Sequence record: OL362041.1
Source of the DNA: Escherichia phage vB_Eco_OMNI12
Length of the DNA: 64,000 nt
Reading direction: 5' to 3' (one strand)
Below are positions 4,609 to 63,529 of the stretch, one piece after another; within the stretch, counting starts at the first letter, position 1; every line of letters begins with the position of its first letter. The notes under the pieces are model-generated. The model saw nothing but the letters and a program-made list of their open reading frames with translations, was not told the origin of the DNA and made no database searches. The translations under genes were made by a program, and so were the position numbers.

Positions 4609-4980
4609 TCACTTAAATTTAATGGCTTGAAGGAGACTAATAATTCTCAAGCGACTTCCTTCATCTTTAACTGTAAATGAAAGAGGGTCGCCAGATTTCA
4701 TAGTGATGGTGCATTCAAAATCAAAATCTTCTGCAACTTCTTCGAATAGGTCAAATTCTTCATCATAAATTAGAACATTACTCTGAAAACTGTGAAGAAT
4801 TTTTCCATCATTTCCAGATGCTGTACTAATCACTGTAACATTATTACCTTTCATATCTTCAACGATAAATTCGCTTGTAGATATTACAGCATTAATAGAA
4901 CCATTCCTATAAATAGCAGAAAATAGATATTTCTTTTCTTCACCTTCGCGAATGCGATATTTCTTACCGATTTTAAACAT
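4609..4980 (-). CDS. Hypothetical protein (123 aa)
   Basis: ORF with ATG at 4980 and AAAGGG SD, tightly packed in operon. Confidence 0.5.
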   Translation of the reverse strand: MFKIGKKYRIREGEEKKYLFSAIYRNGSINAVISTSEFIVEDMKGNNVTVISTASGNDGKILHSFQSNVLIYDEEFDLFEEVAEDFDFECTITMKSGDPLSFTVKDEGSRLRIISLLQAIKFK

Positions 4981-14978: not shown

Positions 14979-15224
14979 TTATTCACCAGTTACTTTCCAC
15001 AAATCTTCGTTTGCAGTAATCCATTCAGTACGTTGATTTTCTTCATATACTGTAGAATATGCTGCTTTTTCTGAAGGGAATATCTGATAATGAGCTCCAG
15101 AAATTTTATGAACGTCAGAATAAAGAGGGAAAGCTACGGAAATTTCCTTTCCTTCAATTTTCTTATTTCCATCTAATTTTTGCTCAAATGTTTTAATATT
15201 AACATAACCGCGAGTACTAGCCAT
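14979..15224 (-). CDS. soc: Small outer capsid protein Soc
   Basis: 81-aa ORF nearly identical to T4 Soc as recalled (MASTRGYVNIKTFEQ...). Confidence 0.9.
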   Translation of the reverse strand: MASTRGYVNIKTFEQKLDGNKKIEGKEISVAFPLYSDVHKISGAHYQIFPSEKAAYSTVYEENQRTEWITANEDLWKVTGE

Positions 15225-15240: not shown

Positions 15241-15450
15241 TTAAATTACATGACTATTTATAATAAATTCTCGCGGAACGTTAAAATACCCAATTTTAGT
15301 TAATATAACAACATCGCCGTTAATAATTACCGGAGAATAATCTTCTGGAGCATTAAATTTCCAATGGGCTCTAATATTATATCCATCAGAACCAAATGCT
15401 CGACTAGCCGGTCTCCCGGCTTTTTGCCATGCATAAAAATCAAATTTCAT
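15241..15450 (-). CDS. Hypothetical small protein (69 aa)
   Basis: ORF between soc and gene 56. Confidence 0.4.
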   Translation of the reverse strand: MKFDFYAWQKAGRPASRAFGSDGYNIRAHWKFNAPEDYSPVIINGDVVILTKIGYFNVPREFIINSHVI

Positions 15451-15641
15451 TTTGAATGCTCTATAATTAATTTTAAAGCTTCTTCACTGACAAAAATTTC
15501 GTCAGGACCTTCTATAACTTCAACCATACGAAGTTGATTAGTTAAGAGCTCACACACGAGCTCTTTGTTATAATCTTTAAATAGCTGGTCAATACGTTTC
15601 TTATGGGCTTTCTTAAGCTGACGCTTATTTAAACGAGCCAT
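15447..15641 (-). CDS. Hypothetical small basic protein (64 aa)
   Basis: ORF; stop overlaps gene 56 start region. Confidence 0.4.
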   Translation of the reverse strand: MARLNKRQLKKAHKKRIDQLFKDYNKELVCELLTNQLRMVEVIEGPDEIFVSEEALKLIIEHSK

Positions 15642-16159
15642 TAATAACCTCGGTCTTGACGAGCGAAGTTTTCAGCATTTTTCAGATAATAAAGTTTAAA
15701 GATTTCTTCAGCCGTAAGACCGAGACCTTGGAACATGTTCAGAACGAAATGAAGAATATCAATCATTTCGAATTTAATTTCCAACTGGTCTTGTGGAGAC
15801 AAATCAGTAATCAGAGTTTCACGTCGTTCACCATGTTGAGCTTTCCAAGGCTTCCATACAGCAGATGCATCTTTTTCACCATTGCTCATACCACCAAGAG
15901 AAGTCAATAGTTCGCGGAATTCATCATCAATATAATCTTTCTGATTACGCAGCCAATCAACAACTTCACCCGCAGTAGCCAAATCATCAGGATGACGGTT
16001 ATATTCAGGTTTATCTTTAGCTAAACGAACCTGTAGAGATTTCTGCATATCAAGCATAACCTGCAGCGGGTCTTTTTCATCACCGAGAATATCCCAGTAT
16101 TCATTTTGAGCTTTATCAGCGCCTTCGATCAGTTGACTACATTCGTTAAAGTAAGCCAT
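15641..16159 (-). CDS. 56: dCTPase/dUTPase (MazG-like), gene 56
   Basis: Track start at 16174 is TTG; the ATG at 16159 with AAAGGA SD gives about 172 aa (T4 gp56 171 aa). Confidence 0.8.
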   Translation of the reverse strand: MAYFNECSQLIEGADKAQNEYWDILGDEKDPLQVMLDMQKSLQVRLAKDKPEYNRHPDDLATAGEVVDWLRNQKDYIDDEFRELLTSLGGMSNGEKDASAVWKPWKAQHGERRETLITDLSPQDQLEIKFEMIDILHFVLNMFQGLGLTAEEIFKLYYLKNAENFARQDRGY

Positions 16160-16219
16160 TATTTTTCCTTTCAATTCATTAATAAGTTAAATAATTATAT
16201 CATTTGAATATGTAAGCAA

Positions 16220-17559
<1,340 letters not shown>

Positions 17560-17582
17560 TATATCATCCTCAGCAATTTATT

Positions 17583-17614
17583 TTATAATACCATAACAAG
17601 CTGAGAAAGTAAAC
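17583..17614 (-). promoter_or_regulatory. T4-type early promoter upstream of the 186-aa ORF and dam
   Basis: Minus strand GTTTAC ... TGGTATTATAAAA. Confidence 0.5.
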
Positions 17615-17658
17615 AAATTTATGAAATTTGTGATAAATATTAATTTAAAGGAGGACAT

Positions 17659-17859
17659 ATGGCACAAAAATTAATGGCACTTGTTAATGCCATCAAAGGT
17701 AATAAGAAACGTATAGCTTTTACTATTTCTGCTATGGTAGGAATTTTACTCTGGAACTTTATTTTATCACCAATTACAATTGCGCATGGTGTTAATATTC
17801 CAGTAGTTACTCTTGATACATTCGTAGATCTAGCATTTGCTTTAGTTGGGTTAATTTAA
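17659..17859 (+). CDS. Small hydrophobic membrane protein (66 aa), plus strand
   Basis: ATG preceded by AAAGGAGGA; predicted transmembrane segments; convergent with gene 61 and overlapping its stop. Confidence 0.45.
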   Translation: MAQKLMALVNAIKGNKKRIAFTISAMVGILLWNFILSPITIAHGVNIPVVTLDTFVDLAFALVGLI

Positions 17860-18884
17860 ATCTTGGCATATTTAGATAACCGCATTTTAGCCATTAACCC
17901 CTGGGCAATATTATTTTTCATATATTCCATAATTTGTTCAGGGGTTGCACCTTCCTTTCTAATCATATCATTAACATCTTTTGATTTCCAGGGAGATTTA
18001 TCCCAAAACATAACCCTTTCTCCTGCATCAACTAATTTAGTCATTCGCTTGATAGTGTCAGGGTGACGAGGTTCATTATCTAAAACCCACACTCGTCTAT
18101 CTTTAAATGGAACAACTTCTAGGTCTAATTGACCACCCGTAATAGCTATACCATTTTCAATAAAAAGTGAATCTATAGGTCCTTCTAGAACATATACATC
18201 ACCATCTTTAACTCGTTCGACTCCATATATTTTTGTTGCCTCAGGATAAGCTTTGATGGTGATATATTTTTGAGGAGCATCTTTCTTTAATGCACGTCCT
18301 TGAAAAGACTCAGCTTTTCCATTAGCATTATAAATTGGAATAACAAGACGAGGCTCAGAAATTTCCTTTTTGTATGTTCCCGGTGCTATGCTATTAACTA
18401 ATTTAGGCCATTCGGTTGTAAACCAAAGATATTTCCATTTATCCTTTGGAATACAACGAGCTTTTACATATTTTATAATTGGATGGTCTTCCGCCAATTT
18501 ATCTAATCTGATGCATGACGGAAGAGATTTAATTATTTTCTTCTCAGGTTGTTTAGGAAGTTCTTTAGGTTTTTCTACTGGACGACTTTTACCTTTTTCT
18601 TTTCTTATTTCAAAGATATACTCACGATATAAATCAGGTTCAAACTCCTTTAAATATATTCCGATTGGTGCATGATAGTTACAGTTATAACAATGAATAT
18701 TTCCTTCATTATTATCGCCATAATACCATCCACGGGCTTTATTTTGGTCGGTTTTTGAATCTCCACAAACTGGGCATCTAAACCGTAATTTAAAAGTTGA
18801 ACTATTATTTACTTGTGTGAATTTAGGTAAATGAGCTAATGCACGGTATGCAAACTCATTATCAATCCAAGGTATTGATGACAT
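17856..18884 (-). CDS. 61: DNA primase gp61 (zinc-binding)
   Basis: 342 aa as T4 gp61; CPVCGDS...CYNC zinc motif and Toprim region. Confidence 0.9.
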   Translation of the reverse strand: MSSIPWIDNEFAYRALAHLPKFTQVNNSSTFKLRFRCPVCGDSKTDQNKARGWYYGDNNEGNIHCYNCNYHAPIGIYLKEFEPDLYREYIFEIRKEKGKSRPVEKPKELPKQPEKKIIKSLPSCIRLDKLAEDHPIIKYVKARCIPKDKWKYLWFTTEWPKLVNSIAPGTYKKEISEPRLVIPIYNANGKAESFQGRALKKDAPQKYITIKAYPEATKIYGVERVKDGDVYVLEGPIDSLFIENGIAITGGQLDLEVVPFKDRRVWVLDNEPRHPDTIKRMTKLVDAGERVMFWDKSPWKSKDVNDMIRKEGATPEQIMEYMKNNIAQGLMAKMRLSKYAKI

Positions 18885-18886
18885 TT

Positions 18887-19051
18887 TTACTCTTCTTTTT
18901 CTTTAGATTCCTCTTTTTTCTTTTTAGGAATCTGTTCAGGACCTTTATTTACTACAGCACCTGATATTGTTCCAGTAGAGATATTTTCAGGATTACCACC
19001 TGAATCTCCAGCAACCATATCTTCTTTGATAAATTCTTTATATGTTTTCAT
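18887..19051 (-). CDS. Small protein (54 aa), 61.1 position
   Basis: Below track cutoff; ATG at 19051, stop abuts gene 61 start. Confidence 0.4.
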   Translation of the reverse strand: MKTYKEFIKEDMVAGDSGGNPENISTGTISGAVVNKGPEQIPKKKKEESKEKEE

Positions 19052-43256: not shown

Positions 43257-45070
43257 TGGTGTTTAACCCTATGCATGATTTCTTTATTTTTACCGAGATT
43301 AAATCCGCGTTCGTTCGGATTTCCCAAATAACCACATGTTCTTCTTATTGTATTCATCTTTTTAGGATCAGTTTCTCCACAAATAGAACAAACAAATCCG
43401 TTTTCAGTAGGAGTCATTTCATGGGTACTTCCACACGTAAAACATTTATCTACCGGCATGTTAACACCAAAATAATCTAAATGTTGTGCAGCATAATCCC
43501 ATACGGCCTCAAGACCTTTCAAGTTATTTTTCATATCAGGAAGTTCAACATAAGAAATGTGACCACCTGTCGCAATGAAATGATATGGCGCTTCACGAGA
43601 AATCTTTTCAAACGGAGTAATATTTTCTTCTACTGAGACATGGAAACTGTTAGTGTACCAGCCTTTATCGGTAACATCTTTTACGCTTCCATATTTTTCT
43701 GTATCGAGTTTACAGAAGCGATAACAAAGGTTTTCAGCAGGAGTCGAATATAAACTAAAAGCAAATCCGGTTCTTTCAGTCCACTGTTTAAGATGAGCAT
43801 TCATTTTAGTTAAAATTTCTCGTCCAATATCACGACCGACAAGAATATTCAATTCGTGAATACCAATGTATCCTAAAGACACTGAACTTCTACCGTTTTT
43901 AAATAACTCAATTATATCGTCATCAGGTTTAAGACGAACCCCAAATGCACCTTCTTGGTAAAGAATAGGAGCAACAGTAGCTTTAACTCCTTTTAAGGAA
44001 CTAATTCTACACATCAAAGCTTCAAAACATAAATCCATTCGTTCATTGAACAATTCAACAAATTTCTGTTCATTGAACTGTGTTCCAATATAAGAATCTA
44101 ACGCGATGCGAGGAAGATTCAGTGTTACAACACCAAGATTATTACGTCCATCAAGAATTTCATTACCAGTCGAATCTTTCCATACGCCCAAGAAACTACG
44201 GCAACCCATTGGAGAAACAGGAACAGATGAACCAGTGATAGCTTTATTGTTCTTAGCTGAAATAATATCAGGATACATCCTTTTGCTTGCACACTCTAGA
44301 GCAAGCTGCTTAATATCATAGTTCGGATCGTCTTTATAAAGATTAACACCTTCTTCAACGAACATAACAAGCTTAGGGAAAATAGGAGTTATTCCATCAC
44401 GACCAAGACCTTTAATACGATTTTTCAGAATTGCTTTCTGAATCATTCGTTCAGTCCAGTCAGTTCCTGTACCAAATGTAATTGTTACAAAAGGTGTTTG
44501 TCCGTTTGAACTAAAGAGAGTATTTACTTCATATTCATAAGCTTGGAATGCATCGTATACATCTTTTTCTGTTTTAGATTGAGCATAATTCAACACATCA
44601 GCGATTTGCCATTTTTCTGCATCCTCAATATGTTTTGCATAGGTGCGTTTAACATAAGGAGAAAGTACTTTATCGACATTAGCAAATGTAGTTCCGCCAT
44701 ATTGGTGAGAAGCAACCTGTGCAGTAATTTGTGCCATAATTGCAGTAGCAACGCCAATTGATTTAGGAGTTTCAATCTGTGCATTACCAAGCTTAAATCC
44801 GTTCTCAAGCATTCCTTTTAAATCTACTAAACAGCAATTAGTAAATGGAAGAGCAGGGGAATAATCAATATCATGGAAATGAATAATTCCGCTTTCATGC
44901 GCTTTCATAATAAAAGACGGGACCATATTTTTGGCAATGTGTTTAGACACAATACCAGCCATAAGGTCCCGTTGAGTTGGAAAAACACGAGAATCTTTAT
45001 TAGCATTCTCGTTTAAAAGGTCTTTATTAGTTTTATGAATCAATCCTTCAATTTCTTTTTCAATTGTCAT
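43253..45070 (-). CDS. nrdD: Anaerobic ribonucleotide reductase NrdD (glycyl radical enzyme), intronless
   Basis: Continuous 605-aa ORF; C-terminal glycyl radical motif RRTCGYLG; Cys-rich zinc site. Confidence 0.95.
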   Translation of the reverse strand: MTIEKEIEGLIHKTNKDLLNENANKDSRVFPTQRDLMAGIVSKHIAKNMVPSFIMKAHESGIIHFHDIDYSPALPFTNCCLVDLKGMLENGFKLGNAQIETPKSIGVATAIMAQITAQVASHQYGGTTFANVDKVLSPYVKRTYAKHIEDAEKWQIADVLNYAQSKTEKDVYDAFQAYEYEVNTLFSSNGQTPFVTITFGTGTDWTERMIQKAILKNRIKGLGRDGITPIFPKLVMFVEEGVNLYKDDPNYDIKQLALECASKRMYPDIISAKNNKAITGSSVPVSPMGCRSFLGVWKDSTGNEILDGRNNLGVVTLNLPRIALDSYIGTQFNEQKFVELFNERMDLCFEALMCRISSLKGVKATVAPILYQEGAFGVRLKPDDDIIELFKNGRSSVSLGYIGIHELNILVGRDIGREILTKMNAHLKQWTERTGFAFSLYSTPAENLCYRFCKLDTEKYGSVKDVTDKGWYTNSFHVSVEENITPFEKISREAPYHFIATGGHISYVELPDMKNNLKGLEAVWDYAAQHLDYFGVNMPVDKCFTCGSTHEMTPTENGFVCSICGETDPKKMNTIRRTCGYLGNPNERGFNLGKNKEIMHRVKHQ

Positions 45071-45540
45071 TTTAAACTCTTTCTAAGCTGCTTCTTAAAT
45101 GAAGCTATTAACTGTGTTTTGGTGTCAGATTCATTATATTCAAATCCTCTTTGAAGCATCTCGGCCATCATTTCCTCTTTTCCTAAACGAGAAAATTCCT
45201 TTGATTTATCTCCAACAAAGTTAGGGTGAATATTATTTTGGGTGTAATCGGATTTTAAATAAGTAAGTAAATTTTCTAACCATTCAAGATAATCAACACC
45301 TTGTCCCTTTAAGCCAGAACGATTAAATTTATGCTTCATTTGACCTTCTGCGGCATTGCAGAGATTACAAAGCAATCCACGTATCTTTCCTGCTTTTGGT
45401 CCATTTAATTCATGGTCATGATCAAGATGATTAGCTTGAACATCAGGATTTAGTTCTCGTTGGCAAATTAAACATTTACCGTTTTGTGCATCATAAAATT
45501 TCTGTTTTTCTTCTTTATATAATTTGCCAGTCAATAACAT
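45067..45540 (-). CDS. 49: Endonuclease VII (Holliday junction resolvase) gp49
   Basis: 157 aa as T4 gp49; Cys-rich HNH-type zinc motif. Confidence 0.9.
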   Translation of the reverse strand: MLLTGKLYKEEKQKFYDAQNGKCLICQRELNPDVQANHLDHDHELNGPKAGKIRGLLCNLCNAAEGQMKHKFNRSGLKGQGVDYLEWLENLLTYLKSDYTQNNIHPNFVGDKSKEFSRLGKEEMMAEMLQRGFEYNESDTKTQLIASFKKQLRKSLK

Positions 45541-45546
45541 AATAAA

Positions 45547-45571
45547 ACCCTTACCTTAAATAGATAAGGGT
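45547..45571 (-). promoter_or_regulatory. Hairpin sequestering the gene 49 Shine-Dalgarno
   Basis: accctta ... taagggt inverted repeat; TAAGGGT sits about 7 nt upstream of the gene 49 ATG. Confidence 0.5.
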
Positions 45572-45582
45572 ATTTATTATTT

Positions 45583-58250: not shown

Positions 58251-58637
58251 TTATTCGAGGGAAAGAAGATATTTGCTCTGGTAAAACATCCCAGTAATAT
58301 CATCTATCGTGCTTTGAATGGCTGGAGGCATTTCTTTATAAATGCTGTTAGATTGGTCTAGTATGCGATCAATCATTTTAATTGTGTCGGTAGGAAGTTT
58401 ACTGGCATCTGGAATAGAAGGCGTGTATTTTCTACCAGAATACCCCAAATATTGCTCACCAAATTTATCAATCAAATCTGGCAACTCAGAGAAAATAAAA
58501 TCGTATGCTTTGTGTCTAGCATAACTTTTAGTTTCAAAATGCGCAGAATGAAAATAAGCTTGTGCAGCCATTAATAAACCTAAGTATTCATCTGCCTTTG
58601 AAGGTTTTCCACTTTGTGAAAAGTCGCTGAATTTCAT
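58251..58637 (-). CDS. Hypothetical protein (128 aa)
   Basis: ORF. Confidence 0.45.
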
Positions 58638-58927
58638 TCAGTCTCCAATTTAATGTTCATAATTCTAGCGTATGATTGTGCCATCTCCGCGCCTCGCTCT
58701 ATACATTCAAAATCGGAAGAGCACGGGTCATTTTTATAAGTCGTTCGCATAAAACTATAGAACTGTTCAGATGATTCTACGCTTTTGTTTTCAAAAAGCA
58801 TATAAACGTGTCTAATACCAGATTCCATAAATTTATCAAAATGAGGATCGACATTCGCTTCAATTGGTGGAGATAAAGCAAACGCTAATCCTAGCATGGC
58901 AAATAGTGCCGTTGCTTTTAAGGCCAT
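58634..58927 (-). CDS. Secreted small protein (97 aa)
   Basis: N-terminal signal peptide. Confidence 0.45.
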   Translation of the reverse strand: MALKATALFAMLGLAFALSPPIEANVDPHFDKFMESGIRHVYMLFENKSVESSEQFYSFMRTTYKNDPCSSDFECIERGAEMAQSYARIMNIKLETE

Positions 58928-58939
58928 AAAGGCCTCCTA

Positions 58940-59152
58940 TCATTTTTGTCCTGTATTTACTTTATGCCGATGCACGGCCTTAACTTTATCAAGGTATTTT
59001 TCAAAATTTCGCAATCTAGTATAGTCTGCCGGAGATTGGTTGAGTGATACTTCTCGACGCAAAGCTGAAATGATATTTCCAACTTCCCTACGAATTTCAT
59101 CTAATTGAAGAACAGTAAGATTGCGAAGTTGCTTTTCAGTTAATTGTAGCAT
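58940..59152 (-). CDS. Hypothetical small protein (70 aa)
   Basis: ORF. Confidence 0.4.
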
Positions 59153-59194
59153 ATATACCCCTTTAGTTAGATAAACCTATTTATAACTTTTGCA

Positions 59195-63167: not shown

Positions 63168-63529
63168 TACAAGCTCTCAGTAAAGGTACGAGCGATAACG
63201 TCGCGCTGCTGTTCCGGAGTCAGAGAGTTAAAGCGAACTGCATAACCGGATACACGGATGGTCAGCTGCGGATATTTTTCCGGATGCTTAACTGCATCTT
63301 CCAGAGTTTCACGACGCAGAACGTTAACGTTCAGGTGTTGACCACCTTCAATTTTAACTGTAGGCTGTTGCTCAATTTCAATTTCACGGGCATGCAAACC
63401 ATAGAAAATTTCTGGGTCTACAAAAGAGTCCTCTTTAAAGGTTTTAGAGACAATAATTCGTGCTTGAATACCATCTTCAAAATAAATAGTACCTTTATGT
63501 GTGCCTTCAAGAATTTGATATGCTTTCAT
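63167..63529 (-). CDS. Autonomous glycyl radical cofactor (GrcA/YfiD-like; T4 Y06I-type)
   Basis: C-terminal 60 aa essentially identical to E. coli GrcA including glycyl radical motif RVSGYAV; 3-prime half is GC-rich and host-like. Confidence 0.8.

Follow-up and report, generated by a model that had tools for sequence, protein, structure and literature searches.

A conserved gene for a small, probably late membrane protein lies convergent with the primase gene 61 in T4-like phages

We analysed a 64,000-nucleotide stretch of DNA from Escherichia phage vB_Eco_OMNI12 (OL362041.1), referred to here as the window, which is part of a Tequatrovirus (T4-like) genome and is oriented as in the T4 GenBank record. 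Its plus strand carries an ORF of 66 codons (17659-17859; ATG at 17659, TAA at 17857-17859) with the translation MAQKLMALVNAIKGNKKRIAFTISAMVGILLWNFILSPITIAHGVNIPVVTLDTFVDLAFALVGLI. A Shine-Dalgarno sequence, AAAGGAGGA, lies on the same strand at 17647-17655, 3 bases 5' of the ATG; the predicted mRNA fold leaves it unpaired, and all orthologues of the ORF have a GGAGG or AGGAG core before their start codon. At its 3' end the ORF meets gene 61, which encodes the 342-aa DNA primase on the minus strand (17856-18884; a 100% identical primase was found), and the stop codons of the two convergent genes interlock in the 4-nt sequence TTAA (17856-17859). Every neighbouring gene is on the minus strand. 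On one side lie the gp56 dCTPase gene (15641-16174), dam (16220-16999), and an ORF of 186 aa (16999-17559), and beyond gene 61 come 61.1, 61.2, sp, 61.4, dmd, and gene 41; of these, sp is a known exclusion gene and lies about 1.6 kb from the 66-aa ORF. The sequence and the ORF list thus bear out each element of the original prediction, which had described a small hydrophobic ORF with a Shine-Dalgarno sequence, overlapping the end of gene 61 by 4 nt among neighbours that all face the other way. The first 40 kb of the window contain 19 plus-strand ORFs of at least 60 aa that start with ATG, and of these the 66-aa ORF alone has a Shine-Dalgarno sequence; it is located outside the coding sequence of the minus strand. 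Its length is not significant by itself; judged from sequence, it is the conservation of its protein across genera that raises it above chance.

The 186-aa ORF lies immediately upstream of dam, and its stop codon overlaps the dam start codon as TAATG. It has an invariant PD-(D/E)XK-type motif (D72...E85-I-K87) and a confident AlphaFold model (pTM 0.79); its matches in the PDB, with E values up to 0.001, are PD-(D/E)XK nuclease folds, its best global structural match is the restriction enzyme MunI (TMq 0.59), and it has weak Pfam matches to DpnII and BanI. The ORF is found in 163 phage records, including T2, and T4 keeps only a 3' remnant of its last ~28 codons. It may therefore encode a restriction endonuclease-like protein translationally coupled to Dam, the two forming a restriction-modification-like pair. 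A sigma-70-like promoter with an extended -10 element (TTTACT-17-TATTAT, TG present; 17585-17613, minus strand) faces the 186-aa ORF, dam, and gp56, back to back with the late-promoter box described below, and phiSITE and middle-promoter predictions fall at the equivalent position in JB75 and fPS-2. The idea that the 66-aa gene belongs to a cassette with the 186-aa ORF was rejected, because T4 and many other phages lack the latter yet keep the former.

That the 66-aa gene exists is already known from hundreds of GenBank entries and from PHROGs. The window protein is identical to UGC97477.1, a "hypothetical protein" of phage vB_Eco_OMNI12, and matches phrog_2024 (PHROGs v4, unknown function) with an E value of 1.5e-30 in hmmscan, residues 3-66 aligning with positions 2-65 of the 65 in the profile. 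Orthologues appear in GenBank as RB68_032 (hypothetical protein), JB75_0238 (putative membrane protein), Phage107_033, and VR7ORF033w, and entries of the RB68_032/JB75_0238 type agree with the window gene in position and orientation. One UniProt orthologue entry is labelled "Holin", apparently by automatic annotation and with no visible evidence. In T4 the ORF is intact, with 94% identity, at positions 17738-17938 of NC_000866, but the stretch is unannotated in the T4 records NC_000866 and AF158101, as is the intact stretch of JS98 (locus L031, at about 1410-1610), and the exact T4 protein sequence is represented in the protein collection solely by raw-read assemblies. Our analysis adds quantitative evidence of coding, the argument for a late promoter, the layout in which a terminator lies within the ORF, the near-universal presence of the gene at a fixed position in Tevenvirinae, and the recognition of this gap in the T4 reference annotation.

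Neither the single protein nor a 31-member profile found anything significant in sequence searches of Pfam, NCBIfam, and the PDB, the matches below significance being Myc_target_1, YejA, and, for a single member, Ldr_toxin (E = 0.1). Foldseek against BFVD returned family members and noise, and an Rfam scan of 17000-19000 found nothing. HMMER searches of 1.84 billion representatives recovered 16 clusters only, all of them proteins of 57-82 aa with the same motif, and gave no remote link to a characterised family. A literature search for Ribo-seq, transcription start site, or peptide evidence in T4 yielded nothing specific.

The original prediction had named conservation in related phages as the check that could count against it, and the ORF came through that check. 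In tblastn searches 692 phage records matched the product, 686 of them over its full length, with identities of 88-98% in Tequatrovirus and 42-56% in Mosigvirus and Gaprivervirus. Further homologues emerged from profile searches and from examination of the loci, in Dhakavirus (JS98), Gelderlandvirus (SEA1 and Melville), Jiaodavirus (KpV477 and many Klebsiella phages), Karamvirus (CkP1), Kanagawavirus (Entb_45), and Moonvirus (Merlin), and two metagenome contigs carry a homologue at the same position. At least nine Tevenvirinae genera therefore keep an intact ORF at this position, at amino acid identities down to 22-55%. In each lineage with a homologue it is the lone opposite-strand gene between the gp56-side and primase-side genes. 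A 4-nt overlap with the convergent gene is the usual state, and the overlap with the minus-strand gene is identical in ST0, VR26, CkP1, Merlin, Entb_45, and the loci L032 and L034. The upstream neighbour differs among lineages and can be dam, the 186-aa ORF, a homing endonuclease gene, gp56, or unrelated small ORFs; because this upstream content varies so freely, the 66-aa gene is retained independently of its neighbours. No copy adjoins the primase gene in Karamvirus EnA02 or Winklervirus LC53, or in the genera sampled outside Tevenvirinae (Krisch-, Slopek-, Biquarta-, and Hadassahvirus), and the gene is therefore dispensable in some lineages.

In Gaprivervirus the gene is present twice: a diverged second copy (type B, 23% identical) stands next to the first in tandem, with the primase gene on its other side. 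Type B copies were located in phage VR26 (L005, 2201-2401, plus strand) and at two further loci (L019, 2532-2654; L016, 2735-2896), and the copy is truncated in P896 and in one IMG/VR genome. Gelderlandvirus and Dhakavirus have the B type only.

The substitution pattern is that of a protein under purifying selection. Within genera, where synonymous sites are unsaturated, Nei-Gojobori dN/dS is 0.12-0.4, and pooling three independent within-genus pairs gave an in-frame pN/pS of 0.19 (Sd = 30.5, Nd = 17.5; binomial P = 5e-8); with the reading frame shifted in the two possible ways, these alignments gave 0.81 and 1.54. Variable sites are distributed over codon positions 1, 2, and 3 as 26, 7, and 36. 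Between genera dS is saturated and dN is about 0.43. Three residues, W32, N33, and P38, do not vary among 31 diverse members, and three more, A40, G44, and P48, hardly vary, giving the family motif WN[FYL]xxxPxAxxxGxxLPxV.

The AlphaFold model built from the 31-sequence alignment (mean pLDDT 77.7) has an amphipathic helix at residues 2-13 and further helices at 16-42 and 52-63, the last two joined by the loop HGVNIPVVT. Hydropathy is maximal at residues 19-42, in agreement with a predicted transmembrane helix at about 19-42 that includes the invariant W32-N33 and P38. The only basic residues of the protein, K4, K13, K16, K17, and R18, are all N-terminal to this hydrophobic helix, K13/K16/K17/R18 forming a basic patch, and the charges that follow residue 18 are limited to H43, D53, and D57, the two aspartates lying in the C-terminal helix. 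Stretches of the peptide read (M)VQKLMALVNAIK and IAFTISTMVGILLWNF..., and the C terminus is ...LDTFVDLAFALVGLI (...AFALVGLI). By the positive-inside rule the predicted topology is N-in/C-out, which would place the last ~24 residues at the periplasmic face or let them dip back into the membrane.

Upstream of the Shine-Dalgarno sequence, the plus strand carries a variant T4 late-promoter box, GATAAATA (17632-17639), that agrees with the consensus TATAAATA at 7 of 8 positions and departs from it solely at -13, where it has a G. The box is separated from the ATG by 19 bases, and the predicted transcription start is near 17645. T4 late promoters consist of this one box, about 6 nt 5' of the start of transcription, and need no -35 element; late transcription depends on gp55, gp33, and gp45 and begins after the DNA has replicated. 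Among 50 listed T4 late promoter sites, 32 are perfect, nine have A at -13, and the others show single deviations (PMC2988020), and -13 is the most tolerant position of the box (PMC2988020; Geiduschek and Kassavetis). T4 early and middle transcripts all have one polarity, while late transcripts may have either (PMC2988020). Since the 66-aa ORF is on the strand opposite to the early genes, we infer from this rule that its transcript can only be late.

The motif is rare in the window. ATAAATA occurs three times on each strand, approximately eight-fold less often than base composition predicts (~25 expected by our own estimate). All three minus-strand copies lie just upstream of a Shine-Dalgarno sequence and ATG, namely at 15254-15261 before soc (14979-15224), at 45570-45577 before gene 49 for endonuclease VII (45067-45540), and at 59177-59184 before rI.-1 (58940-59152) and rI (58634-58927). 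In T4 these genes are served by late promoters, and the three boxes act as internal positive controls for our reading of the motif. On the plus strand the copy at 17633 is the only one followed by a Shine-Dalgarno sequence and ATG. The two other plus-strand boxes, TATAAATA at 4908-4915 and AATAAATA at 63481-63488, have no Shine-Dalgarno sequence and ORF after them, the former lying antisense inside a minus-strand gene (4609-4980); both could drive the late synthesis of antisense RNAs.

Relatives keep the box as well. It lies 16-31 nt 5' of the ATG in Tequatro-, Mosig-, Gapriver-, Jiaoda-, and Kanagawavirus and in the metagenome relatives, and it persists where the upstream DNA cannot be aligned between lineages. 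Its form is GATAAATA in the window, T4, and L032; AATAAATA in a second Tequatrovirus context, Mosigvirus, and Jiaodavirus; CATAAATA in Gaprivervirus and L034; and the perfect TATAAATA in Kanagawavirus Entb_45. A weaker match, ATTAAATA, is present in three genera (CkP1, Merlin, and SEA1). Together, the rarity, placement, and conservation of the box lend good support to the predicted late transcription of the 66-aa gene from GATAAATA.

The minus strand of the ORF carries a feature of its own. Transcripts of gene 61 would contain an intrinsic terminator-like element at 17661-17696, consisting of an 11-bp hairpin (17696-17671) followed by the U-run UUUUUGUG (17670-17661), 160-195 nt past the gene 61 stop codon. 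The hairpin folds at -12.4 kcal/mol (z = -2.6). Hairpin and U-run together fall within codons 1-13 of the 66-aa ORF, the hairpin itself within codons 5-13, and a terminator is annotated at the equivalent place in Yersinia phage fPS-2. Because the hairpin is inside the ORF, the 3' untranslated region of the Tequatrovirus primase mRNA would be an exact antisense of nearly the whole 66-aa gene. The hairpin is found in Tequatrovirus only, being absent from Mosig-, Gapriver-, and Jiaodavirus. Because it is specific to one genus, we rejected the minus-strand terminator as the reason why the ORF is conserved. In the other direction, no plus-strand terminator-like site was found downstream of the 66-aa ORF before 20887, so the late transcript should run antisense into the 3' part of gene 61, unless Rho stops the RNA once translation ends.

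These results bear on the two main readings offered by the original prediction. Synteny, purifying selection, the conserved Shine-Dalgarno sequence and start codon, and the late-promoter box give strong support to a real convergent gene that encodes a small hydrophobic protein. An antisense arrangement does not stand as an alternative to the gene and survives as a likely side effect of it, given the lack of a plus-strand terminator and the presence of the gene 61 terminator inside the ORF. It is probably a by-product of a genuine coding gene.

One competing account holds that the ORF is incidental, and that the stretch is kept as the gene 61 3' untranslated region and terminator and as a template for late noncoding antisense RNA, with no protein made. 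The terminator hairpin inside the ORF, the antisense RNA to gene 61 expected where no plus-strand terminator follows, and the treatment of the stretch as intergenic in the T4 and JS98 reference annotations all agree with it. We nevertheless regard it as extremely improbable, since the hairpin is confined to Tequatrovirus whereas the ORF is found in at least nine genera; substitutions are frame specific (pN/pS of 0.19 against 0.8-1.5), with second codon positions almost invariant; frame, start codon, and Shine-Dalgarno sequence remain intact at 22-55% amino acid identity, where dS is saturated; and the invariant W-N and P residues are beyond the reach of an RNA function. A superinfection-exclusion or type I toxin-like peptide, held down by the complementary 3' untranslated region of gene 61 mRNA, is an account scarcely easier to credit. 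In Tequatrovirus, RNA from gene 61 should be antisense to the entire ORF as far as the terminator at 17661-17696, a layout formally like the cis-antisense control of small hydrophobic toxins, and sp is close by; but this terminator-in-ORF layout, and with it the overlap of the gene 61 3' untranslated region with the ORF, is not conserved outside Tequatrovirus. The protein has no similarity to Ldr, Hok, Ibs, Imm, or Sp and no significant match to a toxin family, the single-member Ldr_toxin match being nonsignificant, and an addiction module has no evident use to a lytic phage. Imm and Sp are early products, whereas the 66-aa gene has no Pfam, NCBIfam, or PHROG match to them, is oriented opposite to early and middle transcription, and has a late-type promoter only; because of that promoter, an early exclusion function is a poor fit.

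A lysis protein of the holin, pinholin, or antiholin type, forming membrane holes at the end of infection or regulating them, is also improbable, if less so than either of these. The protein is small, embedded in the membrane, and probably late, it has at least one predicted transmembrane domain (by hydropathy at 19-42 and as an AlphaFold helix at 16-42), and there is the automatic-looking "Holin" label in UniProt. Against this, it has no highly charged hydrophilic C-terminal tail, ending instead in ...AFALVGLI, and no holin match in Pfam, NCBIfam, or PHROG. Nor is the gene linked to an endolysin, holin, or spanin gene; in every lineage examined it is surrounded by replication and nucleotide-metabolism genes, the neighbours being primase, dam, gp56, soc, and homing endonucleases. 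T4 already has a lysis set made up of holin T, antiholins RI and RIII, and spanins, and rI is present in the window at 58634-58927. The labels of exclusion, holin-like, or toxin-type peptide that the original prediction had attached to the ORF therefore found no backing in a charged C-terminal tail, in lysis linkage, or in similarity to Imm, Sp, or toxins.

Our preferred explanation, which we consider very likely to be correct, is that the 66-aa ORF is a genuine Tevenvirinae gene for a 66-residue, single-transmembrane inner-membrane microprotein that is most probably made late, with antisense consequences that we infer from the layout of the locus. Its strand is the one that T4 uses for late transcription only, and gp55-RNA polymerase most likely transcribes it from GATAAATA (17632-17639), giving a leader of about 14 nt, after which the strong Shine-Dalgarno sequence would drive translation. 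The basic amphipathic N terminus would be cytoplasmic and followed by one transmembrane helix, with an acidic/hydrophobic tail of about 24 residues at the periplasmic face, and the conserved WN...P...G..LP segment may contact another membrane component late in infection. Past the stop codon the late RNA would be antisense to gene 61 at its 3' end, and in Tequatrovirus early and middle gene 61 transcripts would pass in antisense through the whole ORF to the hairpin in its first codons. As to function, our best guess, offered with low confidence, is a late role in the envelope, tuning lysis timing, lysis inhibition, or membrane integrity. A more elaborate, two-part reading would make this an unannotated, nearly pan-Tevenvirinae late membrane microprotein of the intensively studied T4, acting in a late envelope process such as lysis timing, the signal for lysis inhibition, or membrane integrity, and, in addition, a bifunctional locus whose late mRNA acts as antisense to help shut off primase mRNA, with the primase terminator set in the first 13 codons; we think this combination unlikely.

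Because the T4 reference and JS98-type records treat the stretch as intergenic, omics studies that use those annotations miss the gene; proteomic, CRISPRi, and transcriptomic work based on NC_000866/AF158101 never scores it. A short, fixed-position family confined to T4-type phages and strongly constrained at W-N and P is an easy target for a knockout or a start-codon mutation in T4. If lysis timing, lysis inhibition, or membrane integrity is affected, the gene would be a new component of a classical system; if there is no such effect, it would join the other small, conserved membrane proteins of phages. Late antisense transcription across an early gene could also be studied cleanly in this natural convergent arrangement.

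The closest relatives of the window gene are the members of phrog_2024 and the GenBank entries from T4-like phages, which belong to the same family over the full length and have the same position and orientation, with nothing to set them apart. Among characterised systems, the 66-aa protein resembles the holins and antiholins (lambda S, phage 21 S21, T4 T, and RI) in being a small, probably late membrane protein, but it lacks their charged C-terminal domain, lysis-cassette context, and sequence or profile similarity, and has instead a single predicted transmembrane helix with short amphipathic helices. Like T4 Imm and Sp it is a small T4 protein predicted to be located in the envelope, and sp lies within 2 kb; in contrast to it, Imm and Sp are encoded on the early strand and have no sequence similarity to it, and Pfam T4_Spackle matches the neighbouring gene instead. 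With the late genes soc, rI.-1/rI, and 49 it shares an ATAAATA motif 5' of a Shine-Dalgarno sequence and ATG, a motif that the window otherwise strongly avoids. Its box differs from their promoters in having G at -13, where the consensus has T and the commonest variant A, and the 66-aa gene lies by itself inside a block of early and middle genes, converging on the gene for primase.
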